This document shows, piece after piece, positions 3,001 to 6,000 of a DNA stretch of 25,029 nt. Made by a program: the position numbers. The stretch lies in IMG/VR virus record IMGVR_UViG_2526164632_000026; one strand, written 5' to 3'. Each line of letters starts with the position of its first letter. The stretch's first letter is position 1. Source of the DNA: a virus (taxonomy: Duplodnaviria; Heunggongvirae; Uroviricota; Caudoviricetes).

Positions 3001-6000
3001 TAAGCGGTAGCTCATTCTGTTGGGTTGGTGCAGTTGCTTTTAGGAAATGCTATTTACCCCTTAAACGTCGGCTGAAAGAGCTAAAATCCATGCAAAAAAT
3101 TTACGCAATTTTGTGTATTATTGTGCAGTAAGTAATGAGCTATTTTCTGCGCAAAAAATGGATGGTAAATTTGTCCGGGGCAGGAAAAATTTTATGGACG
3201 CTAAACATGAAAAAAGATTCGTATCCTTATTTGATTTGCATGACAGTTTCAGGCCTGATCTTTATTTTCCTTTTCTTCTGGTGGCGGGCAGATATTTACA
3301 GGGTCACGTTTCTTAATCAGAGTATATCCCACTATTACATTCTGTTTAGCATGGGAATAGCTTTTCTGTTATCTCTGTTTTGGGTTAAGAAGGGGATAGT
3401 AAAACAAAGCGGCTGGAAGAGTCTGTCAGCATACCTTAAGGTTTATGCAGGGATGTGCATATTTGCTGGATTTTTTCTGATTATACCCCTTACAACACTA
3501 ACTTATTTTTTGCCTGGAGAGACATCGTCTTATGTTGCACCGTATCGGTATACTTCCGGTAGTTCAAAAAGTTGTTCTGGAGCTGAGGTGGATGACCCCG
3601 ATCTACATGAGAATATTCGCATTTGCTATCCGTATGGCAATTATGAGTACGATAATATTATCTATGTTGAAAAGAAAATTAATACATTAGGTGCGGTAGT
3701 AACATATGCACAGACCGCGCGTGATGATACTGAATGAGATAGTATATAGCGGGCAAGTTTTAGTTAATTTATCGAGGTAATATAATTTACCTCGACTCGT
3801 TTATTCTGGTATTAATATTTCGCTTTACGATCGATTTTTATCTGATGATATCATGCGGTTTTCATATACTGACTTACTGTCTTTTCTCCGTTAGCGATTT
3901 TCTCCTGCTCAGCGATGATTTTATCTTTGGCTTCTAGTTAATTTCGCTCACTTCGAACCTCTCTGTTTACTGATAAGTTCCAGATCCTCCTGGCAACTTG
4001 CACAAGTCCGACAACCCTGAACGGCCAGGCGTCTTCGCTCATCTATGGGATCGCCACACTCACAACAATGAGTGGCAGATATAGCCTGGTGGTTCAGGCG
4101 GCGCATTTTTATTGCTGTGTTGCGCTGTAATTCTTCAATTTCTGATGCTGAATCAATGATGTCTGCCATCTTCCATTAATCCCTGAATTGTTGGTTAATA
4201 CGCTTGAGGGTGAATGCGAACAATAAAAAAGGAGCCTGTAGCTCCCTGATGATTTTGCTTTTCATGCTCACCGTTCCTTAAAGACGCCGTTTAACATGCC
4301 GATCGCCAGGCTTAAATGAGTCGGTGTGAATCCCATCAGCGTTACCGTTTCGCGGTGCTTCTTCAGTACGCTACGGCAAATGTCATCGACGTTTTTATCC
4401 GGAAACTGCTGTCTGGCTTTTTTGATTTCAGAATTAGCCTGACGGGCAATGCTGCGAAGGGCGTTTTCTTGCTGAGGTGTCACTGAACAAGCCCCATGTC
4501 GGCAAGCATAAGCAAACAGAATATGAAGCCCGCTGCCAGAAAAATGCATTCAGTGGTTGTCATACCTGGTCTCTCTCATCTGCTTCTGCTTTCGCCACCA
4601 TCATTTCCAGCTTTTGTGAAAGGGATGTGGCTAACGTATGAAATTCTTCGTCTGTTTCTACTGGTATTGGCACAAACCTGACTCCAATTTGAGCAAGGCT
4701 ATGTGCCATCTCAATGCTCGTTCTTAACTCAACAGGAGATGCTTTGTGCATACAGCCCCTCGTTTATTATTTATCTCCTCAGCCAGCCGCTGGGCTTTCA
4801 GTGGATTTTGGATAACAGAAAGGTCGGGAAATACCCAGCCTCGCTTTGTAACGGAGTAGACGAAAGTGATCGCACCTACCCGGATATTATCGTGAGGATG
4901 CTTCATCGCCATTGCTCCCCAAATACAAAACCAATTTCAGCCAGTGCCTCGTCCATTTTTTCGATGAACTCCGGCACCATCTCGTCAAAACCCGCCATGT
5001 ACTTTTCATCCCGCTCAACCACGACATAATGCAGTCCTTCACGCTTCATACGCGGGTCATAGTTGGCAAAGTACCAGGCATCTTTTCGCGTCACCCACAT
5101 GCTGTACTGCACCTGGGCCATGTAAGCTGACTTTATGGCCTCGAAACCACCGAGCCGGAACTTCATGAAATCCCGGGAGGTAAACGGGCATTTCAGTTCA
5201 AGGCCGTTGCCGTCACTGCATAAACCATCTGGAGAGCAGGCGGTACGCATACTTTCGTCGCGATAGATGATCGGTGATTCAGTAACATTCACGCCGGAAG
5301 TGAACTCAAACAGGGCTCTGGCGTCGTTCTCGTACTGTTTTCCCCAGGCCAGCGCTTTAGCGTTAACTTCCGGAGCCACACCGGTGCAAACCTCAGCAAG
5401 CAGGGTGTGGAAGTAGGACATTTTCATGTCAGGCCACTTTTTTCCGGAGCGGGGTTTTGCTATTACGTTATGAACTTCTGAAGCTGTGATGACGCCGAGC
5501 CGTAATTTGTGCCACGCATCATCCCCCTGTTCGACAGCTCTCACGTCGATCCCGGTACGCTGCAGGATAATGTCCGGTGTCATGCTGCCACCTTCTGCTC
5601 AGTGGCTTTCTGTTTCAGGAATCCAAGAGCTTTCACTGCTTCGGCCTGTGTCAGTTCTGACGATGCGCGAATGTCGCGGCGAAATATCTGGGAACAGAGC
5701 GGCAATAAGTCGTCATCCCATGTTTTATCCAGGGCGATTAGCAGAGTGTTAATCTCCTGCATGGTTTCATCGTTAACCGGAGTGATGTCGCGTTCCGGCT
5801 GGCGTTCTGCAGTGTATGCAGTATTTTCGACAATGCGCTCGGCTTCATCCTTGTCATAGATACCAGCAAATCCGAAGGCCAGACGGGCACACTGAATCAT
5901 AGCTTTATGCCGTAACATCCGTTTAGGATGCGACTGCCACGGCCCCGTGATTTCTCTGCCTTCGCGGGTTTTGAATGGTTCGCGGCGGCATTCATCCATC

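Follow-up and report, generated by a model that had tools for sequence, protein, structure and literature searches.

The window analysed here is the whole 25,029-nucleotide stretch of IMG/VR record IMGVR_UViG_2526164632_000026 (Duplodnaviria; Heunggongvirae; Uroviricota; Caudoviricetes), and near its left end it carries a plus-strand gene for a putative membrane protein (3207-3737). All neighbouring genes are on the minus strand. An initial annotation had described such an arrangement, namely a gene antisense to the leftward early (pL) operon between xis and a TraR-like gene, and this description held. Over positions 3000-3900, identity was 100% to phage 434 (OL657226.1) and 98.6% to mEp332, and 82% of 6800-25029 aligned to phage 434 at 99.8% identity. 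Because of this identity over 3000-3900 and most of the remainder, the window is, as judged from its sequence, a 434-type prophage at the lambda attachment site. The open reading frame (ORF) of interest extends over 200 codons (3135-3737, plus strand), and a multi-helix membrane protein of 200 amino acids (aa) had been proposed. Three hydrophobic helices were indeed found; however, the conserved length is 176 aa, counted from ATG 3207.

The coding sequence was delimited by comparison with homologues, 74 of which were found at E <= 0.001 in a search of 5.8 billion proteins. Homologues of 169-180 aa in Salmonella, Enterobacter, Cedecea and Klebsiella were 42-78% identical to the window protein, and the diverged homologues all started at a methionine aligned with residue 25 of the 200-aa frame, in the context MK(K/N)xSY. 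In 8 homologue loci, no in-frame start was present upstream of the aligned ATG, and in-frame stops occurred 2-15 codons upstream. A Shine-Dalgarno-like GGA (3196-3198, plus strand) is located 8 nt before ATG 3207; the corresponding alignment column reads GGA, GGG, GGAG or AGGAGG in all phage-type homologue loci, 8-12 nt upstream of the ATG. The ratio of nonsynonymous to synonymous substitution (dN/dS) was 0.05-0.16 by the Nei-Gojobori method, against homologues whose synonymous sites are near saturation (pS ~0.7). Since the homologue starts, the upstream stops, the GGA/GGAG column and the dN/dS agree, we assigned the coding sequence to 3207-3737 (176 aa plus stop, 531 bp) and infer from the alignment that translation begins at ATG 3207. 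The 24-codon in-frame extension upstream (3135-3206, plus strand, with ATG 3135, ATG 3162 and TTG 3171) was not conserved among the homologues and is probably untranslated. Public start calls disagree: 3135 was chosen in RefSeq and mEp332 (200 aa), TTG 3171 in the 434 record (188 aa) and 3207 in others (176 aa). In a record from 1991 (M60848), a different frame was annotated as 'ORF-22+'. The segment 3207-3737 is a real gene under strong purifying selection.

The 176-aa protein consists of an N-terminus starting with MKK, a first transmembrane helix (TM1), a conserved loop (IYRVTFLN), a second helix (TM2), a basic loop, a third helix (TM3) and a five-strand beta-barrel of ~70 aa with the motifs SCSGAxVDDPDL and NIRICYPxGNY. 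Kyte-Doolittle analysis of the 200-aa frame placed the hydrophobic segments at 32-50, 66-84 and 105-126. An AlphaFold2 model based on 23 aligned sequences (predicted local distance difference test, pLDDT, 87) contained helices at 5-29, 38-61 and 70-101, a beta domain of five strands and, within loop 1, one further short strand; the C-terminal 76 residues modelled alone reached a pLDDT of 92. Loop 2 has five K/R and no acidic residues, and the C-terminal domain is net acidic. According to the positive-inside rule, the basic loop 2 points to a topology in which the N-terminus and loop 2 are cytoplasmic and loop 1 and the barrel are periplasmic. The modelled strand of loop 1 and the barrel would then share one side of the membrane. 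The predicted periplasmic loop and barrel were the most conserved parts of the protein across genera: 25 of the 68 columns of the C-terminal domain were at least 90% conserved, as compared with 0-4 columns in each transmembrane helix. Several Cys and Tyr residues had been noted in the C-terminal tail. The count of Tyr is nine, in line with that remark, but there are only two Cys, one in the SCSGA and one in the RICYP motif, both nearly invariant (at least 90% of sequences). These two cysteines probably form a disulfide in the periplasm. A lipoprotein anchored through the Cys in TM1 was rejected, as no lipobox was present and this Cys was not conserved; a holin was rejected on architecture and position.

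Database searches agreed with the earlier statement that the function is unknown: the gene is real and strongly conserved, and no database assigns a function to it. The remote-homology search that had been suggested returned phrog_1416 (E = 2e-50), to which no function is attached, and nothing in Pfam, NCBIfam or PADLOC. The PHROG profile spans only the last 88 residues, which suggests that phrog_1416 was built from truncated gene calls. The exact sequence is in the UniRef cluster A0A0C2ALM4 ('Transmembrane protein'). The window protein belongs to this phrog_1416/A0A0C2ALM4 family, as the motifs SCSGAxV(D/E)(D/E)P and (R/K)ICYPxG(N/D)Y are invariant or nearly so in both alignments and the protein has the three transmembrane helices ahead of the domain and the start MK(K/N)xSY. 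A profile search of 1.84 billion proteins yielded 57 cluster representatives, all of the same type and none differently annotated. A sequence profile search of the PDB gave only hits with E >= 0.37. The best structural match to the C-terminal domain was a small beta-barrel of the DUF1093/YxeA type (PDB 3npp), which likewise has five strands and a similar size. Another top structural match, PDB 2k5q, is described as membrane-associated.

The family is found well outside lambdoid prophages. Homologues with 55-78% identity occur in P2-like prophages of Salmonella, E. coli, Klebsiella michiganensis and Enterobacter hormaechei, between portal gene Q and replication gene A. This gpQ-gpA interval, which holds old and tin in P2, is a hotspot of anti-phage systems (PMC9122126). 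Neighbouring genes in the hotspot differ from locus to locus, and because this cargo varies we consider that the gene stands alone. In the K. michiganensis hotspot (L024, 2281-5623, minus strand), the homologue adjoins genes for a 790-aa AAA_16-type ATPase and a 279-aa protein without a Pfam match, a pair that may be a two-gene defence system. Between 434 and the Salmonella P2-type loci closest to it (L004 and L005), identity over the 117 bp upstream of the gene (3090-3206) was 61%, although synonymous sites differed at 72%. In the distant Salmonella loci L010 and L012, the identity of this segment was 47-48%, compared with 40% in the flank; about 110 bp of upstream DNA was recognisably related only in the closest Salmonella copies. 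Relatives with 35-50% identity also occupy syntenic positions in chromosomes: in six Enterobacter species next to one GGDEF gene, always directly downstream of ptsG and in the same orientation in Serratia (L028 4333-6510; L033; L045), adjoining one SBP_bac_5 gene in Cedecea and Pseudescherichia, and beside a gene for a bgl-type EIIBCA permease of the phosphotransferase system (PTS) in a Klebsiella species (L015 3882-6543). The Pantoea homologues are on megaplasmids. Since the chromosomal relatives are fixed at syntenic sites, the family is not exclusively viral. On the evidence of these sequence comparisons, the gene is a mobile, self-contained cassette found in unrelated prophages and in bacterial chromosomes.

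In E. coli the cassette is common, with at least 80% of window positions 2900-3900 present in 905 of 5426 complete genomes (~17%). The same arrangement was found in the decayed prophage Sp3/CP-933K of O157:H7, where the Sakai copy is ECs_0804. In O157:H7 strains 86-24 and Sakai (L018 8681-9564; L046 10355-11395), the region from a truncated bet to the nin region, including pL, N and the repressor gene, was lost and int was broken. The membrane-protein gene was intact in the decayed prophage of both strains, at 99.8% identity. Strand-specific RNA sequencing of EDL933 has been published (PMC4048457). A 99% identical copy on a 3561-bp contig binned as 'Candidatus Nanosynbacter' (L031, JARKOR010000073.1) is almost certainly mis-binned E. 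coli prophage DNA.

The gene may have transcription signals of its own. The initial annotation had mentioned promoter-like sequences upstream; a standard sigma-70 consensus scan did not find a promoter in 3000-3206, but an extended -10 element, TGnTAAATT, was conserved at 3163-3171. It was kept in 434, both Salmonella P2-type loci and the Cedecea locus despite saturated synonymous sites. Together with a -35-like TTTTCT (3143-3148) and a 17-bp spacer, it would form a promoter at 3143-3171 on the plus strand, with a predicted transcript start near 3178. Such a start agrees with translation from ATG 3207. With this putative promoter, the gene would be independent of the phage early promoter and hence expressible in the lysogen. 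Downstream, the proposed stem-loop was recovered: a 9-bp hairpin (3772-3795; TCGAGGTAA-loop-TTACCTCGA) followed by a T-rich tail forms a terminator-like element (3772-3805, plus strand) 35 nt past the stop codon. The hairpin and tail were found by a terminator scan (8 sites found vs 1.4 expected), and the segment 3738-3815 folds at -17.6 kcal/mol (z = -2.25). A 56-aa ORF upstream (2961-3131, plus strand) is called 'putative membrane protein' in 434 and 'hypothetical protein' in mEp332, and had no PHROG, Pfam, NCBIfam or PADLOC match. As a partner gene it was rejected, for it straddles the left mosaic junction and the P2-type loci are homologous only from ~3090; it is probably not a gene.

In the prophage, the cassette lies within a mosaic island of about 945 bp (approximately 2990-3935), which replaces same-strand early genes of lambda, 21 and 933W. 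At the left end of the window, ybhC precedes a lambda-type int (1419-2489), xis (2467-2685) and ORF55 (2725-2892), all three phage genes on the minus strand. To the right are a TraR/DksA-type zinc-finger gene (3948-4169; Pfam PF01258), DUF1382, DUF1317, exo and bet, all on the minus strand. Homology to lambda-like prophages stops at ~2990 (in many E. coli genomes, prophage homology covers 2900-2989 only), and homology to Shiga toxin (Stx) phages and phage 21 picks up again at ~3935-3958. A comparison of the xis-exo interval among related prophages, as had been recommended, indicated from the annotations that the Stx phages (933W) and phage 21 fill this slot with same-strand early genes instead. 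The AT-rich island of the initial annotation is real, as GC content was 0.34-0.41 over 3000-3900 and 0.44-0.54 in the flanks. Presence or absence among otherwise syntenic phages, sharp mosaic boundaries and deviant base composition, all seen here, are the marks of a moron or lysogenic-conversion cargo gene. The earlier view of an accessory gene of foreign composition in a conserved operon was supported by the mosaic boundaries, the copies in the P2-like hotspot and the retention in Sp3/CP-933K. On this gene, the phage 434 genome announcement goes no further than to state that morons differ between 21, 434 and lambda. In the 434 reference, a 114-codon gene (ORF114, CPT_434_33; L001 2353-2697) is located between xis and ORF55; it is absent from the window (2686-2724) and from mEp332. 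Because ORF114 is absent, we regard the window prophage as a variant of 434 and not 434 itself.

Other cargo is present in the same prophage type. Phage 434 carries a gene for an NleC-like type III effector protease beside attP, as well as genes for an LpxR-type lipid A deacylase and a SASA-family carbohydrate esterase (L001 1-490 and window 6800-25029). Just downstream of the N antiterminator gene, a 293-aa ORF of low GC (0.30-0.34) lies at 7648-8529 on the minus strand, and the 434 record calls its product 'Nun C-terminal peptide-containing protein'. The product matches the PHROG for Nun-like termination factors over its final 20 residues and a PHROG of unknown function elsewhere. This ORF, at the sieB/ral position of other lambdoid phages, may be another exclusion gene.

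An uncharacterised accessory membrane protein of a prophage is a familiar kind of gene, and the data support this placement. As to what it does, we tentatively favour superinfection exclusion at the level of the envelope as the leading hypothesis, at below an even chance. The protein would be made in the lysogen and would act on the periplasmic side of the inner membrane. Its loop 1 and barrel would bind a conserved host envelope component, not a fast-evolving phage protein; a host component is the more likely partner because these predicted periplasmic parts hardly vary across genera. Incoming phage DNA would find its host route through the periplasm and the inner membrane blocked or occupied, and the prophage would benefit by excluding superinfecting phages at the inner membrane, when their DNA enters. 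The occupation of cargo slots in two phage lineages, one of them an anti-phage hotspot, and the retention of the gene in a decayed prophage are consistent with exclusion.

Several observations weigh against exclusion. No PADLOC-DB 2.0.0 family matched the window protein or two homologues at E <= 1, and a Foldseek search against predicted viral structures returned nothing at E <= 0.001. Among the cloned systems that Rousset et al. list in Table S2 (parts 1, 3 and 4 of four), the protein was absent, and no paper mentioning the gene was found under ECs0804 or the other identifiers tried. The P2 hotspot also holds partition systems and the cdt toxin (PMC9122126). To these points may be added the empty sigma-70 scan and the predicted status of both the topology and the disulfide. 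Finally, the chromosomal copies, which are syntenic and seem to be inherited vertically, suggest a function in the cell envelope that need have nothing to do with phages.

The last point leads to a close rival of exclusion, a general role in the envelope, which we consider only slightly less plausible. Here the protein would be a cellular inner-membrane protein whose barrel binds a transporter, peptidoglycan or a lipid-linked intermediate, and it would be phage-borne as lysogenic-conversion cargo for fitness or stress tolerance. The syntenic copies in Enterobacter (GGDEF), Serratia (ptsG) and Cedecea/Pseudescherichia (SBP_bac_5) and on Pantoea megaplasmids fit such a role, as do a periplasmic domain that is nearly invariant across genera and not diversifying, the other host-directed cargo of phage 434 (the LpxR-type deacylase, SASA esterase and NleC-like effector) and the non-defence genes of the P2 hotspot. 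However, the database searches revealed no similarity to characterised envelope proteins, and the slots in which the phage-borne clade recurs are specifically ones known to house exclusion and defence genes. Moreover, a family with 57 representatives among 1.84 billion proteins is unusually narrow for a housekeeping function.

For superinfection exclusion, the closest functional analogue would be SieA of P22. SieA, a protein of the inner membrane, is expressed from the prophage and blocks DNA injection (PMC10883804). Both proteins are small and prophage-encoded (162-164 aa for SieA, 176 aa here) with three predicted transmembrane helices each, and both are encoded by a single gene in an accessory position, with a promoter that is annotated in the P22 record and inferred here. 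However, the SieA motif is predicted to be cytoplasmic, whereas the conserved domain here is a predicted periplasmic beta-barrel. In addition, sieA is found only between genes 16 and 9 of P22-like prophages, in contrast to the lambdoid and P2-like slots and chromosomes occupied by the present family; in the window the gene is between xis/ORF55 and the TraR-like gene of a lambdoid prophage. The closest positional analogue appears to be sieB of P22 and lambda, annotated in P22 as a gene of ~190 codons with its own promoter, on the opposite strand within the leftward early operon. Its product works from the cytoplasmic side, through abortive infection. It differs in position too, as sieB adjoins the N/24 gene and the present gene lies between xis and exo, and phage 434 has the Nun-tail protein at the sieB position. 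P22 has four exclusion systems, SieB included, which are expressed from the prophage and exclude other phages (PMC10883804). Homology was not detected to either protein, which again counts against exclusion: the hhalign probability was 0.1% for SieA, whose motif FxRYPxEAxxFNK was absent, and 0.25% for SieB. Because neither is homologous, the window protein may work like SieA or SieB but is not a member of their families. A functional analogy of the same kind, without homology, is proposed to HK97 gp15 and DicB. With the genes of the P2 gpQ-gpA interval (old, tin and the systems of Rousset et al., 2022), the family shares the same hotspot in four genera, but it matches no PADLOC model.

A more specific version of the exclusion hypothesis, which is rather unlikely as a whole, is that the gene is the founding member of a new single-gene superinfection-exclusion family common to lambdoid and P2-like prophages. 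The barrel would attach to a conserved component of the host inner membrane that phages use for genome entry, such as the PTS permease ManYZ or PtsG; chromosomal members would be ancestral or domesticated forms modulating this component. PTS permeases are known entry factors for the genomes of some phages. The lead towards a PTS permease comes from the Serratia homologues, which follow ptsG, and the Klebsiella homologue beside the bgl-type PTS permease; adjacency to PTS genes was seen in only two of about seven chromosomal contexts.

An abortive-infection or otherwise toxic membrane effector, i.e. a three-helix protein that permeabilises or depolarises the inner membrane upon a phage trigger, seems improbable. 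A membrane protein within a defence-rich hotspot would suit this role, and Rousset et al. noted that transmembrane proteins of known systems are believed to be suicide effectors. However, the gene occurs alone with no conserved sensor partner, its neighbours varying between loci, and the best-conserved part of the protein is the predicted folded periplasmic domain, not the helices. Stable chromosomal copies without an obvious antitoxin also argue against toxicity.

Still less probable is a mainly regulatory role with the protein secondary, in which a CII-activated rightward promoter would oppose the leftward early transcript before xis/int at the establishment of lysogeny. Three TTGTGCA-like repeats with 10-bp spacing (TTAC 3101, TTGT 3111 and TTGT 3121; 3101-3127, plus strand) may be a regulator site, and the 434 record labels TTGTGTATTATTGT (3111-3124, the middle and right repeats) as a CII consensus. 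The geometry is convergent with the early operon, and P22 has a putatively C1-activated antisense promoter (aI RNA next to xis) at the equivalent place. Lambda CII-activated promoters (pRE, pI and paQ type) have TTGC-N6-TTGC direct repeats on either side of the -35 region. However, 3111-3124 reads TTGT-N6-TTGT, whereas the pI site (2698-2711) and the presumed pRE site (10680-10693) read TTGC, and the pattern TTGYN6TTGY was counted 11 times against 6.2 +/- 2.7 expected. The CII idea loses weight because the repeats have TTGT instead of TTGC and the count does not exceed chance. Related TTGTGCA repeats were also found in the closest Salmonella P2-like loci (three in L005 and two in L004), and P2-like phages are not known to encode CII. 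Strong selection at the protein level implies that the product itself matters. Of the exact sites, the lambda-type TTGCGTGTAATTGC at 2698-2711 (minus strand) is just upstream of xis, at the place given for pI in the 434 record. From its sequence, we take TTGCGTTTGTTTGC at 10680-10693 (minus strand) to be the pRE site. The exact CII sites fit an intact lysogeny-establishment circuit. The last alternative, a chance open frame in AT-rich spacer DNA, which the initial annotation had itself named as the outcome that would overturn its claim, has almost no probability: beyond the absence of database annotation nothing speaks for it, and 3207-3737 is conserved with a dN/dS of 0.05-0.16, has homologues down to ~35% identity with nearly invariant motifs in at least 10 genera and encodes a 176-aa protein with a confident fold prediction, so the conservation data rule it out.

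The evidence so far would not surprise specialists. The start codon of the cassette gene, for which public annotations used three positions, is corrected here. The gene is common, cleanly delimited and easy to test; it is present in about one sixth of complete E. coli genomes, including O157:H7 (Sp3/CP-933K), and in the classic phage 434. As a single 531-bp gene that probably has its own promoter, it is a cheap and well-defined candidate for a new exclusion or envelope function.

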